The notes beneath the pieces were generated by a model that saw only the letters and a list, made by a program, of their open reading frames with translations, did not search any database and was not told the DNA's origin. Positions 3,801 through 49,225 of a stretch of 64,000 nucleotides of DNA are shown here, piece after piece (position 1 is the first letter of the stretch; every line of letters begins with the position of its first letter). This stretch comes from Chloroflexota bacterium (GTDB lineage Bacteria > Chloroflexota > UBA11872). A program made the position numbers and the translations under genes. The stretch is from positions 70,848-134,847 of the forward strand of contig JAJDZD010000072.1 in the NCBI GenBank assembly GCA_022824865.1, read 5' to 3'.

Positions 3801-4327
3801 GTATTGGCTTTGGTCACGTCCACCAGCGTCTCGGGGTCCAGATCGCCATCCGCGTCAAGCCGGGCGGCCACCTGGACCAGCGGCGTCCCGGTTGGGTAGC
3901 GGCCTTCCAGCCCGATCTCAGCCGGACCTTCGACCTCGTGGATCATGCGCGTCAGCGTCTTGGCGTAGTGCTCGCTGCCCCGGGCCAGGACGGCGGACTC
4001 GGTCTGACCGTTACGGCCGCCGGGCGAACCTGCGGCTCCGCTGGGCCAGGCGTACTCGTCGTAGATCCAGGTCTTGAGGCCGGCGTCGCGACCCTTGCGG
4101 ACGGCAAAGTCAACCGCATCCCACCACCGCTCGCCAAAGTACGGGGTCTGCAGGCTTTCGCGCGCGTGCATGAACACGCCGCCGATGCCCTTGTCCGCGA
4201 ACTCCTTAATCTGTCGACCAAGCTCGGCTTCGTGCAGCCGGCCGTTCCAAAACCAGAGCGCCAGCGGCGCATATTCGGGGTCGGGCTGGCCAAAGGACGT
4301 TCGCAGACGATCAAGTGCTCGGCTCAC
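770..4327 (-). CDS. Large glycoside hydrolase-like protein (1185 aa), family unassigned
   Basis: Long ORF with uniform codon usage. N-terminal LALWFWNG...DEYAWPSG resembles the start of a TIM-barrel glycosidase. C-terminal VLVNNRRVDVRLWPPYRFDLSGFV resembles a GH2-type sugar-binding/galactose-binding-like domain. Confidence 0.55.
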   Translation of the reverse strand: MSRALDRLRTSFGQPDPEYAPLALWFWNGRLHEAELGRQIKEFADKGIGGVFMHARESLQTPYFGERWWDAVDFAVRKGRDAGLKTWIYDEYAWPSGAAGSPGGRNGQTESAVLARGSEHYAKTLTRMIHEVEGPAEIGLEGRYPTGTPLVQVAARLDADGDLDPETLVDVTKANTWECPEGTWRVLSFAVRTIEDRIDYLRPATVKAFLDIAYEGYAQRHQAAFGDGIPGVFFDEPYITAEPLPWTDDLPARFEQDKGYDLLTSLPLLVLRGGNNTVKVRCDFYDTVAALYEEAWFAQISAWCQRHGLEWTGHTEEHVASHPTRQGDYFRGLRHLTIPGTDHHGFRYARPRTVQAAEVKPAVSVAAMTGRPRVMAEAFGGAGWGVTLDEIRHGANLLAAYGVNMLVLHGLFYSMATAEAADDWPPSFGHQNPYWSHFKGLSDYVARLSAVVGHSRSATTVGVLYPWTSIAANTADGRPNARAREIAEAYEGLIDGLTDLSIDVQIVDERFISHGNARLENGRLRQGALTITTLVMPPTPVISPQAMRRLGAFVRSGGDLIVVGECPSGSSSGGWKHRSITRAVGTLFGKASATPTGAAVGKGRTFRVPESLPETLECVAEIVAPGTKVDSEADVLVVPRRLDGAEVLMVVNRSAVDTTPTVSTDVPGRPEVWNPETGETTALPTTGSRGKRRFTLELPPRTARFVVFDTSVRASRSRVSRPKKTPTKDLDFKTDWTFALGGGTPTGQGSIRRFELPVMRVASFSLGASRLEQLRDPQFDDADWPETWLVRAGADTIGNWRASWITGVHKHGGWAVKRKSDQHRRLRFRRSIEITEPPIKAWATFVGVDRVTVYMNGTQLGESEDWSSPVTYNIMPYLRPGQNTIVADVECVSDQPISFLFEGQVDLRSGGSIVIVSDESWDVQAPPTEVWSGLAFERDTPLAIWERGRPPVEPWRHIPLLGEPVAFPRTLVYRQRLPAGCVGIGIPNIKGTHKVYVDVRERTPDIQGIYNITTGRTLTVEIEAADFSNGILAPLELFTRPTTIALQPWADFGYGWYSGTGIYERSFELTAEQANSEVTLDLGDVRHHAEVLVNNRRVDVRLWPPYRFDLSGFVQTGSNSLRVRVSNLYANEMRWKRDETKMGNAWHRYWHEDNIEAESLVSGLLGPVQLRVNQPPPPAGGEAAG

Positions 4328-4600: not shown

Positions 4601-5689
4601 CTATTCCACCGGCCAACCGTCAGGCGTCTCGTTGGCGTCCAGGGCCGACTGAATGGCAGTGGCCGCGTCAGCCGTAACCCAGCCGGTCCAGATACCGGGG
4701 CTGCTCTTGAGCCACCAGAGGGCCACGTCATTGGTACTCGCGTCCGGGTTATCGCGCTGCCATCGGGCAATCGTCTGGTACACCTCAATGTTGAGATCCC
4801 AGGATCTCAGCATCTCCACGACGTCCGGCGCGCCAGTCAGGACGTCGGGATGTACCGCGATCAGGATTGTCGCGTCCTCGTACCCGCACGCCTTGGTGGT
4901 GAACCAGCATTCGTCGCTGTATGCCGGCTCCTTCAGCCGCACCAGGTCCAGCACCAGCGACGGATCGTTCGTACCCCACTGGTACCCCAGCCACGGCTCG
5001 CGCCGCTCATACGCGCCGTAGAGGTCGGCGTTCGCGGCCGCGCTATCCCCCGGATTGACGATGTGTACGTGATCGGTGAGGCCGTAGGCCTCGATCTGGG
5101 CGGCATTCACCTCTTCACAGGCCCAACCGATCATGCACGAGACAAGGCGCGCCTTGTCTCCGGATTCTGTCGTTTGGAACAACGCCTTGTACTGCTCGTC
5201 CTTGAGGTCCTCAACGCTGTCCAACTCTGGATACTCTTCCTGCAGGTAGGCTGGAATTACAAATGCCGACTGCCAGTCCTTGCCCAGACTTTCGCCAATA
5301 GAAACCACCTCGCCGGCCGTCTGCGCCTCCGCCCAGGCTTCATCCTGGTTTGGCAGCCAGATTTCCATTGTGATGTGGCTGTCGCCGCGGCGCAGGCCCT
5401 GAAACAACGGGAGCGTAGCGCCGAACACTACGTCGGTGGGATATCCGTAGCCCTTTTCAACGATATACTGGGCAATCCGGTTCTGTATCTGGGCGCTGGT
5501 CCAGTTGAGGTCGCTAAAGACGAGGGTCTGTTTCTCTCCGGGCGGCGCCTCGACCGTCTTTTCGACACCCACTTCCTGAGTAGCGGTCTTCTCGACAACC
5601 TGCGTCTCGCCGCACGCGGCTGCCACAACGGCGCCGGCAAAGCCTAGTGTCCCTAAGCGCAACATCCGTCGTCGGCTGATGTATTTCAT
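4601..5689 (-). CDS. proX: Glycine betaine/proline ABC transporter substrate-binding lipoprotein
   Basis: Start at ATG 5689 (MKYISRRRMLRLG, Tat/lipoprotein signal ending AAACGETQVVE), preceded by a GAGGAG RBS. OpuAC/ProX-type fold motifs are present. Last gene of the proVWX cluster. Confidence 0.8.
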   Translation of the reverse strand: MKYISRRRMLRLGTLGFAGAVVAAACGETQVVEKTATQEVGVEKTVEAPPGEKQTLVFSDLNWTSAQIQNRIAQYIVEKGYGYPTDVVFGATLPLFQGLRRGDSHITMEIWLPNQDEAWAEAQTAGEVVSIGESLGKDWQSAFVIPAYLQEEYPELDSVEDLKDEQYKALFQTTESGDKARLVSCMIGWACEEVNAAQIEAYGLTDHVHIVNPGDSAAANADLYGAYERREPWLGYQWGTNDPSLVLDLVRLKEPAYSDECWFTTKACGYEDATILIAVHPDVLTGAPDVVEMLRSWDLNIEVYQTIARWQRDNPDASTNDVALWWLKSSPGIWTGWVTADAATAIQSALDANETPDGWPVE

Positions 5690-5936
5690 GAAATAATCTT
5701 CACTCCTCGAGGGTCGACCTTGTCGGCCACCATCGCACTGAGCTGCCGCAAACATGCCTTGGTGCATCAAGACTACTGCTATGCACAACACTTCTTTGTG
5801 CAACTTGCACAACAGCAACCTGTATGCTCACGCTACCTGACGAACGCATACCTGTCAATGCAGTGGTCGATGTGTCTCTCAAATCGCCGACACAAGTCAT
5901 ATTATCCGCGTAATTACGTCAACTATTCAGCGACAA

Positions 5937-7001
5937 CTACCCTACGGATCTCAGCATTTCCTGCCGGCTGCGCGATACGGCTTGTGTAAGACGATCGATG
6001 ATGATGGCCATGAACACAATGGCCAGCCCGGCAATGGCCCCGTTGCCCGGCTGATTCTTTTGCAGCGCCCGCAGCACGTTGTCGCCCAGGCCGCCGGCGG
6101 CCACCATGCTGGCGATGGTCACCATGGACAACGCCATCAGGGTGGTTTGATTGATCCCCGCCATGATCGTCGGTAGCGCCATCGGGATCTGAACTTTCGC
6201 CAGGATTTGCAGCGGCGATGCGCCGAACGATCGAACAGCCTCGATCGTCTCGCTCGGAACCTGGCGGATTCCCAGGTTCGTCAACCGGATGACGGGTGGA
6301 ATAGCGTAGATGATCGTGGCGAAAATCCCGGCTGGCTTCCCCAGGCCAAAGGCCAGAATGCCCGGCAGAAGATAGACAAAGCTCGGCATGGTCTGCATCG
6401 CATCCAAAATGGGGCGCAGCAGGTTGTCGGCGAGCCGGCTCCGCGAACTCCAAATCCCCAGGGGCAGGCCGATCAACACGGCAGTAACCACGGCCACCAC
6501 CATCAGCGCAATGGTGTCGATCATGTTTTCCCACAGGTCCATGAAGCCCACGAAGAGCAGCGCGGCCGCCGTAAACCCCACGAGCCGCCATCCGCCCGCC
6601 GCAAAGGACAGGAAAGCCAGTCCGGTCACAATCGCCGGCCACGGCACCCATTTCAGTCCGCCCTCAATCTGGACCAATACAATGTCCACGGCTGCGCTGA
6701 GTCCGTCGAACAGCCAGCTGCCGTCCTTCGTGATCCGATCAACCGCATCGTCAATGGCTCCGCTTGTGACTTCGCGCACGGTGCGGTCCAGCGTGAGGGA
6801 ACCGCCGCCCGAGGTCGGGATTTCCGAACTGGACACCGTCGTCGGAAAGCCCATATCCACGCCCCATAGCAGCAAGCTGATCAGCAGCACGACGCCAACC
6901 GTCGCCAGCCCCGCCAGCCAGGCGTAGTGACGCCGGAGCAGGTGGATCGGCTTGTGCGGCGTCGAAGTTCGTTGGTCAGGCGCACGGTCGACTTGTGCCA
7001 T
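5937..7001 (-). CDS. proW: Glycine betaine ABC transporter permease
   Basis: Multi-TM permease carrying the EAA-type ABC permease motif region (IYAIPPVIRLTNLGIRQVP). Lies immediately downstream of the ATPase gene. Confidence 0.85.
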   Translation of the reverse strand: MAQVDRAPDQRTSTPHKPIHLLRRHYAWLAGLATVGVVLLISLLLWGVDMGFPTTVSSSEIPTSGGGSLTLDRTVREVTSGAIDDAVDRITKDGSWLFDGLSAAVDIVLVQIEGGLKWVPWPAIVTGLAFLSFAAGGWRLVGFTAAALLFVGFMDLWENMIDTIALMVVAVVTAVLIGLPLGIWSSRSRLADNLLRPILDAMQTMPSFVYLLPGILAFGLGKPAGIFATIIYAIPPVIRLTNLGIRQVPSETIEAVRSFGASPLQILAKVQIPMALPTIMAGINQTTLMALSMVTIASMVAAGGLGDNVLRALQKNQPGNGAIAGLAIVFMAIIIDRLTQAVSRSRQEMLRSVG

Positions 7002-17509: not shown

Positions 17510-17785
17510 CCAGAACCACGCCTAGCCTTTCCCCAACCGAGGCCCACGCTATTTCAAGCTGAACCTGCGAAGAGCCTGTCGAGGGGGATCCAACCGTTCG
17601 TGGTGAGCCGGAGCGCCGTCCCCTGCGCCCCGTGTCGAACCACAGCCTCCAGCATCCAAGCCACTCAGGCCATCCTCCCCCTCCTCATCTCAGTTCGCTC
17701 AGCTAGTCCCTCTCGCTCAGGCGCTAGCGCACTTTCCGTTCGCACTCGAAACTTGGGCAGCCCCGCACACATTCGAGGCACTCAC

Positions 17786-30008: not shown

Positions 30009-30836
30009 TTGCGCGTTCCCCTCGACCCGAACAGATCCGAGAAATCGCCGTGGCGTTCGAAAGCTCGGCATGCGGCACTCCCCGTGAGTGATGTCCCGTC
30101 GGCCGCTCGCCCGTGCCGCACGTCAGTGCCGGCCAGCCTCCGCGCCCATTATCGCTGGCTCCTCACCCTCCCCACCCCACCACCCCGGCGCCTCCTTGAC
30201 GTCGGCGCTGGCGACGGCCGCCTCCTCCAAGTCGCCGCCGACCTGGGCATCCCCCACCTAACCGGCCTCGAACGCAAACGCCGCTGGAACCCCGCCAACC
30301 GCGACTTCGCCCCCACCATCGCCGACGCCCACCGCCTCCCCTTCCCAAACGACTCCTTCGACTGCGTCGTCGAAAACGAATCCCTCGAATGGATCAAAAG
30401 CCCCATCCGCTACCTCAAGGAAGCCGCCCGCGTATGCACCCCCAGCGGCCTCGTCATCACCGACGACTCCGACTGGGACACCCTCGTCTACGCCGTCCGG
30501 GACACCGCCCTCGCCCGCCGCGTCTTGCGAGCCTTCTGCGACACCGGCCCCAACGGCTGGATCGGCCGCGCGGCGCCGTCACTCATGCGTCAGGCAGGCC
30601 TGCGCGACATCCAGGTCCACGTCCGCGTCATCACCGAGCGCGAATTCGCCCCCCACACCCTCGGCCACCACCAGGCCCAGATCATCGACGACTGGCTCCG
30701 CCAAACCGGCAACATCACCCCCACCCGACTCGACGACTTCCAGGCCGACCTCCACCACACCGCCCACCGCGGCGATTACCTCTTCACCCTCAACCGCTAC
30801 ATCTGCCTCGGTCGTCCGGCTCCACACTCCTCGTAG
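30009..30836 (+). CDS. Class I SAM-dependent methyltransferase
   Basis: LLDVGAGDGRLL (motif I) and the FDCVVENESLEW region. The start may be the GTG near 30084. Confidence 0.6.
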   Translation: MRVPLDPNRSEKSPWRSKARHAALPVSDVPSAARPCRTSVPASLRAHYRWLLTLPTPPPRRLLDVGAGDGRLLQVAADLGIPHLTGLERKRRWNPANRDFAPTIADAHRLPFPNDSFDCVVENESLEWIKSPIRYLKEAARVCTPSGLVITDDSDWDTLVYAVRDTALARRVLRAFCDTGPNGWIGRAAPSLMRQAGLRDIQVHVRVITEREFAPHTLGHHQAQIIDDWLRQTGNITPTRLDDFQADLHHTAHRGDYLFTLNRYICLGRPAPHSS

Positions 30837-30973
30837 AGTCGGGTCTGAGACCCGCCTCGATCGTCCGCCGCCCAACTCCGTTCGTGGTGAGCCGGCCCGT
30901 AGTCTTCGAAGGGCCGTGTCGAACCACCGGCACGGAGCCTGACCCTGGCCAAAGAGCCCCCTCAAACCACCCG

Positions 30974-31189: not shown

Positions 31190-31493
31190 TTCGCTGAGCT
31201 AGTCCCCCAACCCTACGCCCCGGCCCTGCGTCTCTCACCCTCCCCGCCCCATTCGTAAGGAGCCCGTCCACGGTGCCAGCCCCCGTTCGTGGTGAGCCGG
31301 TCCGGAGTCTTCGGCGGACCGTGTCGAACCACATCCGTAAGCACCCAACCGCGTATTCTTCCAACCACAACAACCCTCCAGAACTTTTCCCATCCACTTC
31401 CCCTTCGCCGAATTCATCGGTGCCCCTTACGACCTCGGCCTCCAGCACGGCCAGCGTTTCCGCGACCTCGTCCGCCTCCAGCTCGCCGAGACC

Positions 31494-32423
31494 ATGCAAG
31501 GCGCCGCCGACAGCGGCCTCACCGCCGCGGCCGCCCTTGAGTGGGCCCGCCAGCAGCAACCCGCCGTCGAAGCTATTGGCCCCCACTGGATCGACGAGCT
31601 TCAGGGCCTCGCCGACGGCGCCGGCATCCAGTTCGACGAAGCCCTCGCCCTCCAGCTCCGCCCCGGCACCGGCGGACTCCCCGAAGGCTGCACCTCATTC
31701 GCCGCCGTTGGATCCGCCACCGTCGACCGCCAGACCATCTGCGGCCAGAACCGCGACCTCGGCGAGCCCTACCTCCACCGCATGTTCCTCGCCGCGTTCA
31801 GGCCCACCCACGGCCCCCACATCCTCATGCACTGCGTCCCCGGCGAACTCGGCGGCGTCGGCCTCAACAGCCACGGCGTCTGCGTCTTCGCCAACTCCCT
31901 CTGGGGCAAATCCGGTCGCACCTGGATGGCCCCGCCCATCCTCCGCCGCGCCGCCCTCGAATTAGACACGGCCGAAGCTGCCACTCAGCGCATCCGTGCC
32001 ATGTCCGGACCCGCCGTCGGCAACTTCCTCATCGCCGATACCCGCCATGCCCGCAACCTCGAAATCCTGGCCGAAGGCCTCCACGTCACCAATGTCGACG
32101 ACGGCGTCTACGCCCACGCCAACAACTGCACCTCGTCCATCCTCCTCCCCCACGAAGCCACCCGCCGGCCCCTCCCCTACTCCGAAGGCCGCCGCGTCTC
32201 CCTCCAGACCGCCCTCGAGCACCACGCCGGCGCCATCGACACCACCGTCTGCCGCCGCCTCCTCAGCGACGAATCCGGCCGCCCCGAACCCGTCTGCCGC
32301 CCCTTTCGGTCCGGCGACCCCTTCGCCACCATCGCCGCCCTCATCGCCGTCCCCCACACCCAAACCCTCCACCTCAGCTACGGCCCACCCAGCAATAACC
32401 ACTTCACCACCTACCGCCTCTAA
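31494..32423 (+). CDS. Peptidase C45 / acyl-CoA:6-aminopenicillanic-acid acyltransferase-like (Ntn hydrolase); 5-prime end unresolved
   Basis: Gly-Cys autoprocessing site (PEGCTSFAAVG) and downstream family-like sequence. The same frame is open back to 31341 and encodes family-like FAEFIGAPYDLGLQHGQRF, but contains no ATG/GTG/TTG start codon. Confidence 0.55.
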   Translation: MQGAADSGLTAAAALEWARQQQPAVEAIGPHWIDELQGLADGAGIQFDEALALQLRPGTGGLPEGCTSFAAVGSATVDRQTICGQNRDLGEPYLHRMFLAAFRPTHGPHILMHCVPGELGGVGLNSHGVCVFANSLWGKSGRTWMAPPILRRAALELDTAEAATQRIRAMSGPAVGNFLIADTRHARNLEILAEGLHVTNVDDGVYAHANNCTSSILLPHEATRRPLPYSEGRRVSLQTALEHHAGAIDTTVCRRLLSDESGRPEPVCRPFRSGDPFATIAALIAVPHTQTLHLSYGPPSNNHFTTYRL

Positions 32424-32472
32424 CCGCCCCCTCCGCGTCCGCATCCTTGACTCTCGTAGGGGCGCGGTCTCT

Positions 32473-32603
32473 GAGCCTGTTTCATAAGTCGCTCAACCCG
32501 GCGAATTCATGGGTCGACAGGCTCGCCACGAATGGTCCTGAACCTGTAACGCTCGTCCAGAGCTTGTCGAAGGACGAGATTTGGCGACTTATGAAACACC
32601 CTC
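32473..32603. mobile_element. 131-bp MITE-like non-autonomous derivative of the IS at 37998-39667
   Basis: Left end GAGCCTGTTTCATAAG. Right end CTTATGAAACACCCTC, the degenerate inverted copy. Flanked by TCTCT on both sides. Inserted in the loop of a REP-like hairpin (gggcgcggtctct / ctctgacccgccc). Confidence 0.55.
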
Positions 32604-32829
32604 TCTCTGACCCGCCCGTCTTCCTCCACCCTTCTCCGCACTCCCTCTTTGCTCTCACCGCCCACTCCTCTCAGCTCACTCCTTCCTCACCCCCCGTTCG
32701 TGATGATCCTGTCCTGAGCCTGCCGAAGTGGCCGGCCCGGAGTCCTCGGAATGCCGTGTCGAACCATCCCTGTCATTCCGACGGTCCCCCGAGGAATCTC
32801 GACTTTTCCCCTCCCCCTCCTCCTCTTTC

Positions 32830-34284
32830 TCACTGCTCTCCCCTCTTCCCTCTCCCCTTCCCCGGAACAAACATCCCATGCGGCTGCCCAACCACCAGCC
32901 CGCCGTCCCGGCTGAACCCCTCCGGCCGCTCCGCAAGCTCTTGCGCCAACCGCCCTCGCCAGGGCGCAAGACTCGCTTCTGAAGCCAAATCCCGCTCCTC
33001 GTTCGGATCGTCCACCACGTCAAACAAATGCTCCTCGCCCGTCTGGCTGAACCAGATGTACTTATGCCGCTCGTTCACAATCCAGTGATTCCCGTCCGCC
33101 TCCCGGTACTGGCCCGCATGCTCCCCGTGCAGCACGTCCCGCCATTCCGGCGTTTCGCCGCGCATCCACGGCAGCACACTCCGACCCGTCACCGACTCGG
33201 GAATCTCACAGCCCGCCGCGTCCAGCAGCGTCGGCATCACGTCCTGCAGCCCCACCGGCGCCGCCACCTCGACTTGCCTCGGCAACCCCATCGACCGCGG
33301 CGCCCGCGCCAGGAACGGGACGCGGACCGAGGCCTCATACGGCCACGTCTTCGCGAATAGGTGATGATCCCCCAGCATCTCCCCGTGATCCGACACGAAC
33401 ATGATGAACGTGTCGTACAGCAACCCGCGGTCGCGCATGTACTGGAACAGCCGGTTCAACTGCATGTCCACGTGATTCACCAGCCCGTAATAGCCCGCCC
33501 GGCAGTGATGCATCGGCGCCGCGTCCAGGTGCAGCCGTCGGCTCCACCGCTCCATGTCCTCCGAAAGCTCCGGATCCATCCCGCGCCGCGGCCCCTCAAA
33601 CGGCGGAACCCAGTCCCCAACCACCGGTTCCGGCAAATCCATGCGCTCGTACCGGTCAAAGAAGAACGATGGCGGCGTAAACGGCGGATGCGGGTCCATG
33701 AACGACACGTTCAGAAAAAACGGTGCCGTCGGATCGCGCGTTTCCAGGAAATCGATCGCGCGCGACACCGTCCAGAATGTCAGCGTCTTCTCCTCCGGCA
33801 AGTGCGTCGGACGGCCGATCCATCCGTTGGAAGGCGCCCCATTTGCCATCGCCCAGCGGTGCGGCGGAGCCTCGCCGCGCAGCCACGTCAGGTAATCGTT
33901 GTCGCGGCCGCGCGAGCTCTCCGCCAGGTCCATCGCGTCAAAGCCGAATCGGCGCCGCGTCGGTTGCAGGTGCAGCTTGCCGCACAGGTGCGTTTCGTAG
34001 CCCGCGTCTCGCAACTCCCCCGCCAGCGTCGCCGGCGGATCCCACTCCGGATGCCCGGTCATCCCCACCATCCCGTTCGCCGAGGGCGCCTGCCCCGACA
34101 TCAGCACCCGGCGCGCCGGAACGCACGACGGACACTCCGAATACCCGCGCCGGAAATGCGTCCCCGAAGCCCCGATCCAATCCATCGCCGGCGTCTCCAA
34201 CACCGGATGCCCATCCAACCCCAGCGCATCTCCCCGCTGCTGATCCGTCACAACCAACAAAACATTCGGCCGCCCCTCACCCAT
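32830..34284 (-). CDS. Sulfatase (arylsulfatase family), copy 1
   Basis: Start ATG 34284 with a GGAAGGAG RBS. Sulfatase motif SCVPARRVLMSGQ (C-x-P-x-R) and VLLVVTDQQRGD. About 90% identical to 36419-37876. Confidence 0.8.
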   Translation of the reverse strand: MGEGRPNVLLVVTDQQRGDALGLDGHPVLETPAMDWIGASGTHFRRGYSECPSCVPARRVLMSGQAPSANGMVGMTGHPEWDPPATLAGELRDAGYETHLCGKLHLQPTRRRFGFDAMDLAESSRGRDNDYLTWLRGEAPPHRWAMANGAPSNGWIGRPTHLPEEKTLTFWTVSRAIDFLETRDPTAPFFLNVSFMDPHPPFTPPSFFFDRYERMDLPEPVVGDWVPPFEGPRRGMDPELSEDMERWSRRLHLDAAPMHHCRAGYYGLVNHVDMQLNRLFQYMRDRGLLYDTFIMFVSDHGEMLGDHHLFAKTWPYEASVRVPFLARAPRSMGLPRQVEVAAPVGLQDVMPTLLDAAGCEIPESVTGRSVLPWMRGETPEWRDVLHGEHAGQYREADGNHWIVNERHKYIWFSQTGEEHLFDVVDDPNEERDLASEASLAPWRGRLAQELAERPEGFSRDGGLVVGQPHGMFVPGKGRGKRGEQ

Positions 34285-34365
34285 CACCCCTACTCCTTCC
34301 CCGTCCAACCCTCACGACTCCCCCCACCACAAACCCTATACCCCCATCCGGCCCCTCTTTCGTAC

Positions 34366-34386
34366 GGGCGGGTCTCTGACCCGCCC
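34366..34386. repeat. REP-like perfect hairpin GGGCGGGTC-TCT-GACCCGCCC (intact copy)
   Basis: 9-bp stem and 3-nt loop, followed by the conserved GTCTTCCGCTCGTGATC tail. The same unit recurs at 36169-36189 and, interrupted, at 32459-32616 and 37985-39680. Confidence 0.7.
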
Positions 34387-34642
34387 GTCTTCCGCTCGTG
34401 ATCTACTGGCCGCCCCCGCATATTTCGTACAGACCGCCTTTCGATCCCGCCCGTCGTCCTCTTCCTCTTCCTCGGCCACCCGCGAATCATTACCCTCTCC
34501 TGGGAGACCTTTGCAAAACGCCTCTCGACCTCGAAAATGTGTCCGCTCTTAATCCCTCTCCTGGGGGAGAGGGTTGGGGTGAGGGGTCTTCCGCGCAACC
34601 AACGATGGGTTACGCAAAGGTCTCATTAGGGAGAGATATGTC

Positions 34643-36127
34643 GTGAGCCACACGCCCGCAAACGCGCGCAGCCCCAACGTCCTCATCGTCCTCTGCGACC
34701 AGCTCCAACGCGACTTCGTCGGCGCCTACGGCCATCCCCTCGCCCACACCCCCAACATCGACCGCCTGGCTGCCCGCGGCGTCAAGCTCGCCCATGCCTA
34801 CGTGCCCAAGCCCCAGTGCGCCCCTGCCCGCGCCTCCATGTTCACCGGCCGCTATCCCCACCAGCACCAGCTCATGATGAACAACGCCGCCATCACCTGG
34901 CAGACCCCCGTCGGCCCCCTCGCCAACCGCCCCGACCTGCCCGAGACTGTCCCCTCCCTCGGCCAGGCCTTCCAGGCCGCCGGCTACCGACTCGGCTACA
35001 CCGGCCCCTGGCACATGGGCAACGACGAAACCCCCCAGCACGGCTTCACCGACTTCTGGCGCACCTATCGCTACTGGCAAGACGGCCGCGACTACTACGT
35101 CCAGTACCTGGAAAAGCTCGGCCTGGACCAACTATTTCACGACGAGCATCAGCGCGCCAACATGGCCCGCGCCGCCCGCACCGATCACGCCCAGCCGTCC
35201 ATGGCCACCGAGATCCCAACGGAGCACACCCGCACCGCCTGGGCCGTCAGGCAGACCCTGGAGTTCCTCGATAGCGCCGACACCCGCCCCTGGCTCTTCT
35301 GCTGCTCCATCAAAGACCCCCATCCCCCCGTCCTGCCGCCCCCCGAATTCGCCGACCTCGTCTCACCCGACGACGTCCGCTTCGTCCCCTCCTGGGTCGA
35401 CGACCTCTCGGACAAACCCGCCCTCCAGCGCGACTCCGCCAGCGTCCGCTGGACCTCCTACATGACCGACGACCAGTGGCGTCAATACATCGCCCACTAC
35501 CACGGCCTCAACGCCCACATCGACACCGAAGTCGGTCGGCTACTACAGGGCCTCGACCAGCGCGGCCTCACCGGCAACACCCTCGTCATCTTCCTCTCCG
35601 ACCACGGCGAAATGATGGGCTCCCACCACATGGCCCACAAAGGCCCCTACATGTACGAAGACGTCTACGCCATCCCCTTCATCGCCCACTGGCCCGGCCA
35701 TGTCGAAGGCGGCCGTACCCACCCCGACCTCTTCTCCACCGTCGACTTCACCCCCTCCCTCGGCGCCCTCTGTGGCGTGCCCGTCGATGCCGGCGCCGGC
35801 CTCGACCAGTCCGCCGTGCTCACCGATGGCGAGACGGGCCCCCGCGACGCCATCTTCGCCGAGTTCTACGGCCAGGGCTCCGAGGCCGAACGCGGCCTCA
35901 TGGCCATCAAATCCATCCGCACCCACGACTGGAAACTCAACATCTACCTCAACGACCGCTCCGAGCTCTACCACCTCGCCACCGACCCCCACGAACTCAC
36001 CAACCTCATCGACCACCCCGACCACCAGGCCACCAAACGCCACCTCGCCCACCGCATCCTCCACTGGCTCCGCCAAACCGACGACCCCCTAACCGAGGTC
36101 TTCGCCAACGAAGCCGTATCCACCTAG
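34643..36127 (+). CDS. Sulfatase (arylsulfatase family), distinct subfamily
   Basis: GTG start 34643 with a GGGAGAG RBS. PQCAPARASMFTGRYP (C-x-P-x-R), VLIVLCDQLQRD, DHGEMMGSHH. Confidence 0.85.
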   Translation: MSHTPANARSPNVLIVLCDQLQRDFVGAYGHPLAHTPNIDRLAARGVKLAHAYVPKPQCAPARASMFTGRYPHQHQLMMNNAAITWQTPVGPLANRPDLPETVPSLGQAFQAAGYRLGYTGPWHMGNDETPQHGFTDFWRTYRYWQDGRDYYVQYLEKLGLDQLFHDEHQRANMARAARTDHAQPSMATEIPTEHTRTAWAVRQTLEFLDSADTRPWLFCCSIKDPHPPVLPPPEFADLVSPDDVRFVPSWVDDLSDKPALQRDSASVRWTSYMTDDQWRQYIAHYHGLNAHIDTEVGRLLQGLDQRGLTGNTLVIFLSDHGEMMGSHHMAHKGPYMYEDVYAIPFIAHWPGHVEGGRTHPDLFSTVDFTPSLGALCGVPVDAGAGLDQSAVLTDGETGPRDAIFAEFYGQGSEAERGLMAIKSIRTHDWKLNIYLNDRSELYHLATDPHELTNLIDHPDHQATKRHLAHRILHWLRQTDDPLTEVFANEAVST

Positions 36128-36418
36128 CACGTCAAGTCAGAACCCCGCCCTGATTCCGTCTGTCGTAGGGGCGGGTCCTCGACCCGCCCGTCTTCCGCGC
36201 AACCACCAGCCCCTACCCATTCGTGGTGAGCCGGTCCGCTGCCGTGTGGCCCAGGCTGCGCCCAACCTGGGACCCTCCGCCGGGGACCACACCCCCGCAC
36301 TACCCAACCCACCCCGCCAATCCCCCTCCGTCATCCCGGCGTCCCCAGAGAGCCTGCCCTGAGCTTGCCGAAGAGCCTGCCCTGAGCCTGTCGAAGGGGG
36401 ATCCAGTCTTCCTCCCCT

Positions 36419-37876
36419 CTAACTCCTCTTCCCTCTCCCCTCTCCCTTTCCGCCCGGAACAAACATCCCATGCGGCTGCCCAACAACCAGGCCACCGTCC
36501 CGGCTAAACCCCTCCGGCCGATCCGCCAGCTCCTCCGCTAACCGCCCCCGCCACGGACCAAGATCGGTGTTTGGTGCCAGATCCCGCTCCTCATTCGGAT
36601 CCTCCACCACGTCAAACAAATGCTCCTCGCCCGTCTGGCTGAACCAGATGTACTTGTGCCGCTCATTCACGATCCAGTGATTCCCGTCCGCCTCCCGGTA
36701 CTGCCCCGCGTGCTCCCCGTGCAGCACGTCGCGCCACTCCGGTGATTCCCCACGCATCCACGGCAGCACGCTGCGACCCGTCACCGATTCCGGAATCTCA
36801 CAGCCCGCCGCATCCAGCAGCGTCGGCATCACGTCCTGCAGACCCACCGGCGCCGCCACCTCCACCTGGCTGGGGAATCCCATCGACCGCGGCGCCCGCG
36901 CCAGGAACGGCACCCGAACCGACGCCTCGTACGGCCACGTCTTTGCGAATAAGTGGTGATCGCCCAGCATCTCCCCGTGATCCGACACAAACATGATGAA
37001 CGTGTCATACAGCAAGCCCTTATCCCGCATGTACTGGAACAACCGGTTCAGCTGCATGTCCACGTGATTCACCAGCCCGTAATAGCCCGCCCGGCAGTGG
37101 TGCATCGGCGCCGGGTCCAGGTGCAGTCGACGGCTCCATCGCTCGGTGTGCTCGGAAAGCTCCGGATCCATCCCGCGCCGCGGCCCCGGGAACTCCGGCA
37201 CCCAGTCGCCAATCACCGGCTCCGGCAGGTCCATGCGCTCATACCGGTCGAAAAAGAACGCCGGCGGCGTAAACGGCGGATGCGGATCCATGAACGAGAC
37301 GTTCAGGAAGAACGGCGCCGTCGGATCGCGCCTCTCAAGGAAGTCGATTGCTCGCGACACCGTCCAGAACGTCTGCGTTTTCTCCTCCGGCAGATGCGTC
37401 GGACGTCCGATCCATCCGTTCGAGGGCGCCCCATGGGCCATCGCCCAGCGGTGCGGCGGCGCCTCGCCCCGCAGCCACGTCAGGTAATCGTTGTCCAGGG
37501 TGCGCGAGCTGTTCGCCAGGTCCATCGCCTCAAACCCAAAGCGCCGCCGCGTCGGTTGCAGGTCCAGCTTGCCGCTCATGTGTGTTTCATAGCCCACGTC
37601 GCGCAACTCGCCTGCCACCGTCGCCGCCGGATCCCATTCCGGGTGCGAGATCATCCCCGCCATCCCGTTCGCCGACGGCGCCTGCCCCGACATCAGCACC
37701 CGGCGCGCCGGAGCACACGACGGATACTCCGTGTACCCCCGCCGGAAATGCGTCCCCGAAGCCCCAATCCAATCCATCGCCGGCGTCTCCAGCACCGCAT
37801 GCCCATCCAACCCCAGCGCATCCCCCCGCTGCTGATCCGTCACAATCAACAAGACATTCGGCTGCCCCTCACCCAT
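36419..37876 (-). CDS. Sulfatase, copy 2 (paralog of 32830-34284)
   Basis: Start ATG 37876 (MGEGQPNVLLIVTDQQRGD). SCAPARRVLMSGQ motif. The flanking non-coding sequence is also duplicated. Confidence 0.8.
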   Translation of the reverse strand: MGEGQPNVLLIVTDQQRGDALGLDGHAVLETPAMDWIGASGTHFRRGYTEYPSCAPARRVLMSGQAPSANGMAGMISHPEWDPAATVAGELRDVGYETHMSGKLDLQPTRRRFGFEAMDLANSSRTLDNDYLTWLRGEAPPHRWAMAHGAPSNGWIGRPTHLPEEKTQTFWTVSRAIDFLERRDPTAPFFLNVSFMDPHPPFTPPAFFFDRYERMDLPEPVIGDWVPEFPGPRRGMDPELSEHTERWSRRLHLDPAPMHHCRAGYYGLVNHVDMQLNRLFQYMRDKGLLYDTFIMFVSDHGEMLGDHHLFAKTWPYEASVRVPFLARAPRSMGFPSQVEVAAPVGLQDVMPTLLDAAGCEIPESVTGRSVLPWMRGESPEWRDVLHGEHAGQYREADGNHWIVNERHKYIWFSQTGEEHLFDVVEDPNEERDLAPNTDLGPWRGRLAEELADRPEGFSRDGGLVVGQPHGMFVPGGKGEGRGKRS

Positions 37877-37997
37877 CACCCCTACTCCTTCCCCATCCAA
37901 CCCTCGCCAATCCCCCACCACAAACCCTATACCCCCATCCGTTCGTGGTGAGCCCTGTCGAACCACCCGGCCCCTATCTTCGTAGGGGCGGGTCTCT

Positions 37998-39667
37998 GAG
38001 CCTGTTTCATAAAGTGGGTGGTGTTGCGTGACGGCGCCGCCGGCCAGCGGGCCGGCGTGGGTGGAGGTGAGGGGGTATGCCGCATCGACCGATGAGCCGC
38101 GAGCAGCAATGGCTGCTGCCTCCGAGCCTGGACGAGCTGGTGCCGGCCGATCATCCGGCCCGCTTCGTGGCCGAGTTCGTCGATGCCCTCGACGGCGGCG
38201 CCTGGGCTGCCATGGGCATCGACCTCGCCGGGGATCCCCTGGGCGCGCCGGCCTACCACCCGCGGGCGCTGCTGAGTGTCTGGGTGTACGGCTTCATGAC
38301 CGGGGTCCGGTCGAGTCGGAAGTTGGAGGCGGCCTGCCGGGAGCAACTGCCGTACCTGTGGCTGACGGGGTGCCAGACGCCGGATCACATCACCTTGTGG
38401 CGGTTCTACGCCGTCCATCGAGCCGGGATGCGGCAGCTGTTCACGCGCACGGTCCGGATGGCGCTGCGGCTGCAGCTGGTGGCGTTGGCGGTGCAGGCCG
38501 TGGACGGCACCAAAGTCGACGCCAACGCCAGCGGGGCCCGGACCTACGATTCGGCGGGGCTGCGCCGGCTGCTGGACCGGGTGGAGGGCGCGATCGACGA
38601 CCTGGAAGCGCAGCACGAAGCGGGCGACGAGCCGCGGCCAGCCCGGCTGCCGGCGGCCTTGGCCACCCGGCGGCGGTTACGCACGCAGGTGCGGACGGCC
38701 CTCGCGACGCTGGACCAGCCCACGTCGCCCACGCGGATCAATCTGACCGATGCGGACGCGCCGCTGATGAAGACGCGGCAGGGGGTGCGGCCGGCCTACA
38801 ACGCCCAGGCGATGGTCGCGCCGGTGGCCCGGGGGGCCGCGGGCGGCGGCCGCCTGATCACCGCGGTCGCGGTGGTGGATGACCCGGCCGATGCGGCGCA
38901 GTTGCCGCCCATGCTGGCGCAGGCCGAGGCCGCGACCGGTACGCCAGCGGACCTGACGGTGGCCGATGCGGGCTATCACTCGGGGGCGGCGCTGGCGGCC
39001 TGTGCGCGCCGCGGCCACCGCGTGGCCATGCCGGAGGCGCAGGCGCGGGCCCTGCAGCAGCCGTATCACAAGGACCGCTTCAGCTACGAGGCGGCGCGCG
39101 ACCGCTATCGCTGTCCGGCCGGGCAGTGGCTGCGCTTCACGCGCACGAAGACCACGCAGGGCACCGCCATGCGGCTCTACCGGGCCTCCGGGGCCGTCTG
39201 CCGGGCCTGTCCGGCCTTCGGAATCTGTACGACCGACGGGCGGCATGGACGCGGCTTGGAAATCGGGCCGCACGACGCCCTGCTACGGCGGCATCGGGCC
39301 TGGATGGCCACGCGCGCGGCCCAGCACTGGGTAGCGCAGCGCCCGGCCCTCGTCGAACCCGTCTTCGGCATCATCAAAGACCAGCAAGGGGCTCGCCGCT
39401 TCCTGCTGCGCGGGCTGGCCAATGTCAAGGCCGAGTGGGCCCTGCTCGCCACCGCCTTCAACCTGCGCACGCTCTGGCGGCTCTGGCGGGCGCCACCCAC
39501 CGAACCCGCCGGGTGGGATGCGGCGATGACCACCGCTGGCGCGCCCGCCTAGCCCCCGGTGACGCCTCAGCGCGTCGGCGCAGCCTCGTCACATCGCCGG
39601 AAGCCACCCGTCCAGGCCGCACGATGGCGTGAGCCTGCCCCCTGAATACGCCTAATGAAACAGGCTC
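37998..39667 (+). mobile_element. IS element (1670 bp), IS5/IS1182-family, with 13-bp terminal inverted repeats and 4-bp CTCT target-site duplication
   Basis: TIR GAGCCTGTTTCAT at 37998-38010 and its reverse complement ATGAAACAGGCTC at 39655-39667. CTCT at 37994-37997 and 39668-39671. Removing the element plus one CTCT regenerates the REP hairpin GGGCGGGTCTCTGACCCGCCC. Confidence 0.7.
38077..39552 (+). CDS. DDE transposase, IS5/IS1182 family (DUF772-type N-terminus)
   Basis: 491 aa. N-terminal LPPSLDELVPADHPARFV and WLTGCQTPDHITLWRF. DDE region with DAGYHS. C-terminal LLRGLANVKAEWALLATAFNLRTL is typical of this family. Confidence 0.8.
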   Translation: MPHRPMSREQQWLLPPSLDELVPADHPARFVAEFVDALDGGAWAAMGIDLAGDPLGAPAYHPRALLSVWVYGFMTGVRSSRKLEAACREQLPYLWLTGCQTPDHITLWRFYAVHRAGMRQLFTRTVRMALRLQLVALAVQAVDGTKVDANASGARTYDSAGLRRLLDRVEGAIDDLEAQHEAGDEPRPARLPAALATRRRLRTQVRTALATLDQPTSPTRINLTDADAPLMKTRQGVRPAYNAQAMVAPVARGAAGGGRLITAVAVVDDPADAAQLPPMLAQAEAATGTPADLTVADAGYHSGAALAACARRGHRVAMPEAQARALQQPYHKDRFSYEAARDRYRCPAGQWLRFTRTKTTQGTAMRLYRASGAVCRACPAFGICTTDGRHGRGLEIGPHDALLRRHRAWMATRAAQHWVAQRPALVEPVFGIIKDQQGARRFLLRGLANVKAEWALLATAFNLRTLWRLWRAPPTEPAGWDAAMTTAGAPA

Positions 39668-40001
39668 CTCTGACCCGCCCGTCTTCCGCTCGTGATCGAC
39701 GGGCCGCCCCCGCCTCTTTCGCAGGCGCGTCATCTCCGACCCGCCCGTCTTCCTCTTCCTCCGCCATCCCGGCGTCTCCGGCCGGGACCCAGCAGCACCC
39801 AACAACCCGAACGCATCCAAGCCATCCCTGGCAACCCACCCAGACCAAATGCTCCCAACCGTCCCCTCCGCCTCCCACTACTCACTGCTCTCCGCTCACT
39901 CCCTCCCCACCCGCCATCGCCCTGTCCCACGCCGCCGTCATCGGCGACGGTGACCGCCGACGCTACAATCGGATCACCGGACGGGTCACTGGAGAGCTTC
40001 A

Positions 40002-40298
40002 ATGGATGTACGCGAGGCTGCACGCACAGCCAAGACGTATATCGCCAATGTCTTTGCCGACGAGGCTATTGATGAAGTCGGACTCGAGGAAGTCGACTTT
40101 GACGACCATTCGAATCTCTGGAAGATAACCATCAGCTTCCTGCGTCCCAGGGGCGAAATGGACAGATTCCAGGCTGCGGCATCAGGCTATCCGGCCGGTA
40201 CCCCCACAATGCGTCGTTCCTTCAAGGTTGTGAACATCGACGACGGGTCCGGCAGCGTCGTTTCCGTCAAGCACCGGGTGGTGGAAGGCGCCGACTGA
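40002..40298 (+). CDS. Small acidic hypothetical protein (98 aa), upstream partner of a PIN-like gene
   Basis: GGAGAG RBS. Highly acidic (ADEAIDEVGLEEVDFDDHS). Ends 4 nt before the next ORF. No known family recognised. Confidence 0.5.
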   Translation: MDVREAARTAKTYIANVFADEAIDEVGLEEVDFDDHSNLWKITISFLRPRGEMDRFQAAASGYPAGTPTMRRSFKVVNIDDGSGSVVSVKHRVVEGAD

Positions 40299-40302
40299 CT
40301 CG

Positions 40303-40761
40303 TTGCCCGCCGCATGCTATCTCGACGCCAATCTGCTCGTGCTCCTCGTTGTCGGCGCCACGGATCAAGCCCTGGTACGTAGGCATCGTCGCCTGCAAGC
40401 ATTCGACCCTGATGACTATGAGCTTCTGGTCGAATTGCTCGGGAATTACCCGCAAGTACTGGTAACGCCAAATACACTCACCGAAACGTCCAATCTGCTA
40501 AGTCAACATGCCGAACCCCAGCGATCCAGGTTCTTTGAAACGTTCCGATCACTAATCGAAATCAACAAGGAAATAGTCGTGGAAAGCCGGCAAGCCTCAG
40601 GAAACGCATCTTTCAAGCGCCTGGGACTGACCGATGCCGCGCTTCTTGAGGTAGTCACCGCGGACACCCCGCTGATCACGGTGGACCTGGACTTATACGT
40701 GGCAGCCTTAGCAAAGTCGCCAGGTGCAGCCATAAACTTCACGCATCTCCAGCACCTCTAG
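40303..40761 (+). CDS. PIN-like domain protein
   Basis: CYLDANLLVLL (beta1 Asp), then LTETSN, LTDAALLEV and ITVDLDLYVAA acidic positions, consistent with a divergent PIN fold. Confidence 0.5.
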   Translation: MPAACYLDANLLVLLVVGATDQALVRRHRRLQAFDPDDYELLVELLGNYPQVLVTPNTLTETSNLLSQHAEPQRSRFFETFRSLIEINKEIVVESRQASGNASFKRLGLTDAALLEVVTADTPLITVDLDLYVAALAKSPGAAINFTHLQHL

Positions 40762-40987
40762 TCGTCCCCCTCTTGCGTAGGTGCCGCGTTTCCAACCGGC
40801 CTCTTCCGCGCAACCACGCCCGAAGTACGCAGAGGTCTCCCGTTACGACACCGTCCCTGCCCCCGCAGTCCTCTTCTCCCCTCCGCCTCTTTTCTCAACG
40901 CTCACTACTCTCAGCTCACTCCTTCCTCCGGCGTCCATCCTCAACCCGCCCCAAGTAAGCTAGCCCGACCCCCACGCCACCTCTCGC

Positions 40988-49014: not shown

Positions 49015-49225
49015 ATGCGCGCGAGGCCCCCCATTTCGACCCCTCCAGCCACCCGCGTCAGCACCCACCCGCGGCTGCGGCCGCCGTTTCCCGTTCCTCC
49101 GTCCCCGTCTTCTCTCACTGCTCACTGCTCTCAGCTCACTCCTTCCGCCCCACCCGGCCTCGGTTGACATCCCACCCCACCCCGGCACGATTGACGCAGC
49201 CCGCATCCCGGAGCGCAACACCTCC

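Follow-up and report, generated by a model that had tools for sequence, protein, structure and literature searches.

A probable IS1182-type MITE of low copy number at the tip of a REP-like hairpin in a Chloroflexota genome

How does a gene-less unit of 131 bp come to lie at the tip of a short, repeated extragenic hairpin, and whose transposase would have put it there? The question is raised by a 64,000-nt stretch of Chloroflexota DNA (the window, to which coordinates refer unless a locus from another assembly, numbered L, is named), in which the unit lies 5.4 kb from a full-length insertion sequence (IS). The two elements and the hairpin halves around them are as follows.

32473–32603, forward strand: 131-bp non-autonomous element (putative MITE), with terminal inverted repeats (TIRs) at 32473–32493 and 32583–32603 that match at 19/21 positions
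32468–32472, no strand assigned: left copy of the target duplication of the MITE, TCTCT
32604–32608, no strand assigned: right copy of the target duplication of the MITE, TCTCT
32456–32469, forward strand: left half of the MITE-split REP-like hairpin, GTAG head and arm GGGCGCGGTC, with one extra C
32609–32624, forward strand: right half of the MITE-split hairpin, arm GACCCGCCC and conserved tail GTCTTCC
37998–39667, forward strand: IS1182-family insertion sequence of 1670 bp; the 13 terminal bp are the same at both ends, with 16/20 matches over the first 20
38077–39552, forward strand: transposase gene of 491 aa, apparently intact, with NF033551 and Pfam domains
37982–37997, forward strand: left half of the IS-split hairpin, GTAG GGGCGGGTC, with the left CTCT duplication at 37994–37997
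39668–39687, forward strand: right half of the IS-split hairpin, CTCT at 39668–39671 followed by arm GACCCGCCC and tail GTCTTCC

The left end of the 131-bp unit is GAGCCTGTTTCATAAGTCGCT and its right end, read as the reverse complement, is GAGGGTGTTTCATAAGTCGCC (21 bp each, 19/21 matching). The outer 13–15 bp are those of the 1670-bp IS, the ends of which are GAGCCTGTTTCATAAAGTGG and GAGCCTGTTTCATTAGGCGT. When up to two mismatches are allowed, the 13-mer GAGCCTGTTTCAT matches the 64-kb window at the four termini of the MITE and the IS and nowhere else; by arithmetic, about 0.002 exact matches are expected by chance per 128 kb over both strands. Through its ends the unit can fold into a long hairpin (-28.7 kcal/mol, z = -4.3). 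An earlier reading of the sequence alone had described a 131-bp MITE with ends of the IS type, and had named, as the outcome that would speak against it, a unit unique in the genome with a TIR likeness limited to 11–13 bp by chance. All sequence features of that description are present at the coordinates listed above, and the confinement of the 13-mer to four termini disposes of the chance likeness.

The 491-aa product of the transposase gene matches NCBIfam model NF033551 (IS1182 equivalog) with 355.9 bits (cutoff 270) over model positions 2–488 of 488, and IS5 models remain far under their cutoffs. Pfam domains DUF772 (PF05598, 1.4e-15), DDE_Tnp_1_6 (PF13751, 8e-20) and DDE_Tnp_1 (PF01609, 7.8e-10) are found in the same protein. 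IS1182 elements are about 1.3–2 kb long with a single transposase ORF (ISfinder size range), and the window IS has TIRs and a single 491-aa ORF in 1670 bp. The transposase family is large (3118 proteins at E <= 1e-50), the nearest relatives of the window enzyme being 81–88% identical. Three relatives (L020–L022) have transposases of 81–84% aa identity and full-length elements of 83–86% DNA identity, at non-syntenic sites. A look-up of the exact transposase protein returned one locus on record, the window's own, met again in SRR16351687.

At 131 bp the unit is too short to code for a transposase, and its ends are like those of autonomous ISs, agreeing at 15/15 positions with the left end of the window IS, at 17/20 with the right end, and at 20/20 with the left end of the L009-type IS. 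The 5-bp length of its duplication, TCTCT, is that of the IS clade, since L009, L014, L021 and L022 are also flanked by 5-bp duplications. The unit is dispersed over three non-syntenic loci in three assemblies, and L038 provides the empty site for the copy in L035 (see below). Beyond its ends, the interior has no similarity to the window IS or to any other IS of the clade. The earlier description of the MITE as derived from the neighbouring IS therefore cannot be kept: the interior matches nothing in that IS, and the unit is no deletion derivative of it. A remnant of a full-length IS whose interior had been deleted at 32473–32603 would likewise carry the ends of an IS of this clade, but an interior that resembles no IS of the clade, and the presence of the 131-bp unit with the same interior at two other loci, contradict such an origin, which is extremely improbable. 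The unit is very probably a low-copy MITE of a Chloroflexota clade of IS1182-family insertion sequences.

The hairpin recurs as an extragenic palindrome of the form GTAG GGGCGGGTC tct GACCCGCCC GTCTTCC. The MITE stands between cGTAGgggcgcggTCTCT and TCTCTgacccgcccgtcttcc, and the IS between cGTAGgggcgggtCTCT and CTCTgacccgcccgtcttcc. Five to six copies of the hairpin are present, all at 30.8–39.8 kb and none in the remainder of the window, and the arm motif GACCCGCCCGTCT, expected 0.29 times, occurs 5 times. Copies other than the two split ones are:

34362–34393, forward strand: intact paralogous hairpin, GTAC GGGCGGGTC tct GACCCGCCC GTCTTCC
36165–36196, forward strand: second intact hairpin, GTAG GGGCGGGTC ctc GACCCGCCC GTCTTCC
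30833–30858, forward strand: diverged hairpin copy, GTAG AGTCGGGTC tga GACCCGCCT
39724–39753, forward strand: degenerate hairpin copy, right arm and tail intact and left arm decayed, with a weak fold (z = -1.4)

The reconstructed MITE target folds with the insertion at the loop, and the flanks bear out the sequence-only reading in that the MITE interrupts a further copy of the repeated hairpin, at the tip, and is flanked by a target duplication. The extra C in the left arm (GGGCGCGGTC against GGGCGGGTC) makes this a variant rather than an identical copy of the hairpin. The duplications are also not the same CTCT at both sites, as had been supposed: that of the MITE is the 5-bp TCTCT and that of the IS is CTCT, which can be read as CTCTG when the initial G of the IS is assigned to the target. 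As single-stranded DNA the intact copies have strong folds. The intact hairpin at 34362–34393, which folds with -15 kcal/mol (z = -6.3), has flanks homologous to the IS site on both sides (82% over 94 nt; a segmental paralogue) and is therefore the empty-site equivalent of the IS target, giving gggcgggtCTCTgacccgccc when empty and ...CTCT[IS]CTCT... when filled. The right flank of the hairpin at 36165–36196 matches the flank of the MITE site in L003. The search for empty hairpin sites that had been proposed was thus productive, with the copy at 34362–34393 for the IS and L038 for the L035 MITE. A terminator scan called none of the hairpins, as they are missing a T-tract, and an Rfam search of 30–41 kb gave no relevant match. 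The hairpin arms were also considered as the true ends of the elements; this was ruled out, the arms varying from event to event around a constant GAGSSTGTTTCA core and intact hairpins existing.

A scan of a genome collection, from which the source genome is absent, returned 15 loci with the 20-bp end pattern. In L003 (Chloroflexota MAG OZ242271, 3815–3945) there is a 131-bp copy that is 88.5% identical to the window MITE. Its neighbours are a DUF4276 gene on one side and a methyltransferase gene on the other, so that it is non-syntenic with the window, and L003 was ruled out as an orthologous locus as the genes differ on both sides. This copy splits a gggcgg.../gacccgccc hairpin and has TCTGA and TCTCA at its sides. 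The third copy, of 130 bp and 85.5% identity, was met among orthologues of the upstream C45/AAT gene (L035, 2225–2354), where it has an aldo-keto reductase gene on one side and a small ORF on the other. Its target is a GTAG palindrome different from that of the window, GTAGGGGTACCC-CTTGT-GGGTACCC, which is intact in the collinear L038 and becomes ...CTTGT[130 bp]CTTGT... in L035; the two loci differ by exactly the unit and CTTGT, besides a single base changed in a run of C. On either side of 32423–39960 the window is also syntenic with L038, which, after its window-homologous left flank, has a MITE-free hairpin, GTAGGGGCCGCGTCTCTGACCGGCC, related to that of the window and with TCTCT present once. 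The presence/absence pair and the MITE-free hairpin of L038 together indicate that the MITE inserts as a unit. MITE-free hairpins are found downstream of C45/AAT in L037 as well as L038, and the orthologous loci L034–L036 have no hairpin at the position of the MITE hairpin of the window, so that these three provide no clean empty site for the window MITE.

Could the three copies instead descend from one ancient insertion, carried along as the repeat modules around it were rearranged or spread, with the unit never having transposed by itself? In all three the unit has one orientation with respect to the GTAG head; the intergenic regions are built as mosaics from repeat modules that they share, and the window and L003 copies have split members of one hairpin family and have left flanks that are similar in part. 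Against this, L035 and L038 differ by a clean insertion of the unit with a 5-bp duplication and are otherwise collinear, the L035 target hairpin (GGGTACCC) differs in sequence from that of the window, the flanking genes are unlike at all three sites, and a common orientation in three of three would arise by chance with a probability of 0.25. A single ancient insertion is thus very unlikely. Even less can be said for a chance resemblance, or for a part of a host palindromic repeat array unrelated to transposons. The region is rich in small repeats and nothing further favours this idea; it is contradicted by an end core found only at four termini in 64 kb, by the inverted 21-bp ends, the target duplication and the empty orthologous site, and by flanking palindromes that change between events around constant ends, and its probability is next to nil.

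Pairwise differences among the three copies are 12–15%, so that recent activity is not indicated. A single copy lies in the 64-kb window and its 4.9-kb extension, and the exact-end pattern gave one copy per representative genome in a collection without the source genome; in the available data the family is low-copy and old. In a metagenome scan the 20-bp end pattern had three matches, none of them to the 131-bp family or the source genome, and scans of viral contigs with the end pattern and an interior pattern gave none. A protein search with the ORF running through the MITE, for spurious ORFs over other copies, returned no candidate, and the Logan contig that extends the window by 4.9 kb has no MITE, IS end or hairpin.

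The surroundings of the C45/AAT gene vary in other ways. In L037 (4029–4060) and L038 (4096–4127) a hairpin, GTAGGGGCGGGTTTCAAACCCGCCCGTCTTC, overlaps the end of C45/AAT such that its GTAG head supplies the TAG stop codon of the gene; the window gene ends in TAA, and this hairpin is missing. Downstream of this gene, L038 has just two GTAG hairpins, followed by a pair of genes for 98 aa and 152 aa proteins (40002–40761 in the window). Compared with L038 4099–4420, window positions 32423–39960 hold an extra 7.5 kb that consists of the MITE-bearing REP, three paralogous sulfatase genes, two intact hairpins and the IS-bearing REP, and this may be a hairpin-bounded indel. The AAT orthologue of L034, a complete relative of 3.83 Mb, has IS110-family (DEDD) transposase genes on both sides (2867–3811 and 5030–5971); the IS110 family is known for REP insertion.

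The question of how the hairpins are chosen was addressed with 14 insertions that carry the GAGSSTGTTTCA core: the IS and MITE of the window, the MITEs of L003 and L035, the ISs of L009, L012, L014 and L020–L022, a 180-bp MITE in L016, MITEs of 170 and 171 bp in L004 and L013, and a 1433-bp non-coding element in L002. Targets were reconstructed by removing the element and one duplication, and were then folded. Twelve of the 14 form a hairpin with the insertion at the loop, and the remaining two insertions (L014, L022) adjoin a hairpin without being inside it. Perfect flank-spanning stems of at least 6 bp were found for 7 of the first 11 events, compared with 3.3% of 20,000 random control positions. 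Clean 5-bp duplications occur in eight events (window MITE, L035, L009, L014, L021, L022, L004 and L013), their sequences being TCTCT, CTTGT, TTGAA (twice), TTGGA, ACAAG, TAGGG and TTCAA, and are missing in L012, L002 and L020. Both arms are kept and the loop is duplicated in the window IS, the window MITE, L035, L009, L021, L004 and L013. GTAG or its complement is part of 9 of the 14 targets by our own count. The loops vary by target (TCT, TTGAA, CTTGT, CGATA), as do the stems, and these differences argue for recognition of shape over sequence. What the clade recognises may be the shape of the tips of REP-like palindromes, extruded as hairpins or cruciforms, which it would cut with a dyad-centred stagger of about 5 bp, a tentative reading that is more doubtful than not. 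The suggestion that the MITE can serve as an internal control for loop targeting proved useful, and extends to the 14 events, 12 at loops. In a more distant branch (P0103, 64% aa identity), targets are the 4-bp palindromes TGCA and TATA, and hairpins are absent.

In L023–L032, the 1705-bp P0103 IS is found in most of the places sampled at the same TGCA/TATA site within a DDE_Tnp_1_4 transposase gene, in both orientations, and this looks like an IS that nested in another IS and then spread with it as a unit.

Which transposase would move the MITE is a separate matter. When the first 20 nt are compared, 14–17 positions agree between the ends of the MITE and those of the window IS, and the two ends of the window IS match each other at just 16/20. 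The window transposase must tolerate that much divergence, and mobilisation of the MITE by the enzyme encoded at 38077–39552 is for this reason plausible; judged from these end sequences, the chances that it is the mover are no better than about even. The MITE may also be of this IS clade and have as its partner the lineage of L009 and L014, with left end GAGGGTGTTTCATAAGTCGC, whose transposase has 63% aa identity to that of the window (an L009-type IS end is CATAAGTCGC). To the left end of the L009, L014, L012 and L005 ISs, the right end of the MITE matches at 20/20 positions and its left end at 18/20, and in the Dehalococcoidia MAG CBDBGE01 this type of IS (L005, L012, L014) co-occurs with the 180-bp MITE of L016, which has the same 20-bp end. 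Such a partner is absent from the window and its short extension, however; the 16/20 agreement between the window IS ends means that its enzyme already copes with the divergence seen in the MITE ends, and the L009-type IS itself already has unlike bases at positions 4–5 (CC or GG) of its two ends. A partnership with the L009/L014 lineage is possible, at somewhat worse than even chances. The same somewhat adverse odds apply to its corollary, that the window IS would be a bystander sharing the clade-wide end core and target preference.

Other small elements with the same end core are found in related genomes. The 180-bp MITE of L016 (776–955) has an unrelated interior, lies in the loop of CCGGGCT-CGAT-AGCCCGG, and carries the exact 20-bp end of the three full IS copies of its genome (L005, L012, L014). 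A family of 170–172-bp MITEs in the Dehalococcoidia MAG CBDCYP01 (L004 1023–1192, L013 6649–6819, L002 2970–3141) is situated in the loops of GGCGGGTTTCAAACCCGCC hairpins, in both orientations and with the duplications TTGAA and TTCAA. CBDCYP01 also has a 1433-bp element without a long ORF (L002 1709–3141), the left end of which is common to four loci, including L008 and L013, and the right 172 bp of which look like a nested MITE. Still shorter units, bounded by GAGGCTGTTTCATAAGTC... and ...TGAAACAGCCTC, occur in L011 (Saprospirales, 6297–6340, 44 bp), L015 (Acidocella, 2104–2186, 83 bp) and L018 (metagenome, 226–369, 144 bp); they stand above chance pattern matches because each has an inverted partner, and they may be minimal MITEs or terminator-like hairpins derived from IS1182-type ends.

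Several other repeats share the intergenic regions of the window. A second family has the form CCGTTCGTGGTGAGCC[optional inner hairpin GGxCCGxAGTCTTCGxxGGxCC]GTGTCGAACCAC and is found at 17588–17659, 30872–30943, 31277–31348, 32688–32766, 36211–36244 and 37938–37965; an Rfam match is absent from the 30–41 kb searched. Two of its boxes, at 32508–32535 (reverse strand) and 32552–32580 (forward strand), make up most of the MITE interior, and it is also present in L034–L036, directly after the AAT stop codon. Its short forms look like a variable 7-bp stem with a conserved 13-nt loop, (T/A)GAGCYTGTCGAA, and the loop core GAGCCTGTCGAA is similar to the end core of the transposons, GAGCCTGTTTCA, and to GAGCCTGTCTCAA in the P0103 IS. 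A 62-nt pyrimidine-rich repeat, ...CTCACTxCTCTCAGCTCACTCCTTCC..., occurs at 32635–32696, 39855–39916, 40875–40936 and 49095–49156, directly upstream of a forward-strand ORF in three of the four copies. An intergenic block of about 114 nt, 74–85% identical between genomes, is found in the window (39757–39869), L003 (3567–3680) and L020 (9625–9753 and 13363–13456); in the window and L003 it lies between a family hairpin and a large downstream gene (of methyltransferase type in L003). The widespread hairpin repeat ccctctcctgggggagagggttggggtgaggg is 97% identical between window 34554–34585 and L016 4100–4132, in a different MAG, and has a sub-threshold Rfam match to whalefall-1 (22.5 bits against 37). 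It adjoins the IS insertions of L014, L012 and L005, those of L012 and L014 being in or directly beside members of the repeat.

In the staphylococcal IS1182-family elements IS1272 and TnSha1, integration into DNA hairpins or palindromes depends little on primary sequence and is often at gene-terminal or intergenic stem-loops; insertion is at the stem, part of the hairpin is deleted and no duplication is formed (PMC4923244, PMC5678879). Siguier et al. (2015), as cited in these two papers, reported that some IS1182-family members target palindromes, the citations giving no detail. The window IS is like IS1272 and TnSha1 in the family of its transposase and in its integration into a hairpin, but differs in that neither arm is lost and about 5 bp of loop sequence are duplicated, which corresponds to a pathway in the model of PMC5678879 that duplicates the loop alone. 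Stem-loop replacement of the IS1272 type does not describe these insertions, as the arms are kept and the loop is duplicated at seven loci; a few events (L012, L002, L020) are without a clean duplication.

Among MITEs, the nearest parallel in form is with those partnered by the IS1182-family ISMac2 in Methanosarcina acetivorans: one is of 160 bp, with 14 copies, 26-bp inverted repeats and a 4-bp duplication, and a second is of 169 bp with 7 copies, as listed in the MITE table of PMC3852290, where target structures do not appear. Both they and the window MITE are short non-coding units with the ends of an IS1182-family IS; going by that listing, theirs are archaeal and of higher copy, whereas the window MITE is from Chloroflexota, low-copy and specific for hairpin loops.

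With its GTAG (GTRG) head, GC-rich palindrome and extragenic position, the target has the form of a REP, and its likeness to REPs is one of form. IS1397 inserts in the loop of REPs. Targeting of REPs has been recorded for the IS3, IS110, IS4, IS256 and IS5 families, with IS1182 not listed (PMC1525189), and examples include IS1397 and ISKpn1 (IS3) and ISPpu9, ISPpu10 and IS621 (IS110) (PMC1525189; PMC12288879 for ISPpu9). All of these have host repetitive extragenic palindromes as targets, as is seen here, but IS3 elements encode a frameshifted DDE enzyme and IS110 elements an RNA-guided DEDD enzyme, both unrelated to the window transposase. The excerpts available from PMC2817692 describe REP/RAYT palindromes that share with the window target the GTAG head, GC-rich palindrome, short loop, extragenic position and repetition, for example GTAGGGTGGGTCTTGACCCACC of Haemophilus parasuis (Table 1); the REP hosts in those table excerpts are all Proteobacteria, whereas the host here belongs to the Chloroflexota.

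A mechanism can be proposed on this basis. The MITE would carry just the transposase-binding ends (core GAG-SS-TGTTTCA-N-AAGTCG) and no genes, so it must be moved in trans by a DDE transposase. Integration would be aimed at the tips of short GC-rich palindromes, mostly GTAG-headed REP-like extragenic hairpins, where the transposase would cut across the loop with a stagger of about 5 bp. Repair would then leave the loop bases duplicated on either side of the element, with one arm of the hairpin in each flank, and the full-length IS 5.4 kb away would have arrived in a second copy of the hairpin by the same process. Two steps are conjectural: that the hairpin is recognised as a structure and not as a sequence, and that the neighbouring IS, not a related lineage, would supply the transposase.

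Hairpin targeting by IS1182 members, MITEs derived from IS1182 elements and insertion sequences in REPs are already published. The combination of an IS1182 clade, a loop-centred 5-bp duplication, GTAG palindromes and several MITE families in Chloroflexota appears to be undescribed in the literature consulted. At this locus the IS, the MITE and intact target hairpins lie within 8 kb, and empty sites are provided by related genomes; it is therefore a compact natural illustration of IS1182-family loop targeting with a 5-bp duplication. As such it is a clean but ordinary case of known transposon behaviour and leaves general concepts unchanged. It is relevant to annotation, in that the intergenic regions of Chloroflexota MAGs are mosaics of GTAG palindromes, small mobile elements and other repeat boxes, which can break assemblies and yield spurious ORFs. 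If shape recognition is true, the clade would be a natural example of a loop-duplicating pathway that has so far only been modelled, with MITEs as built-in controls, and a tractable system for structure-directed DDE integration. It would also add a second mobile layer on REPs, in a phylum in which REPs are little described.
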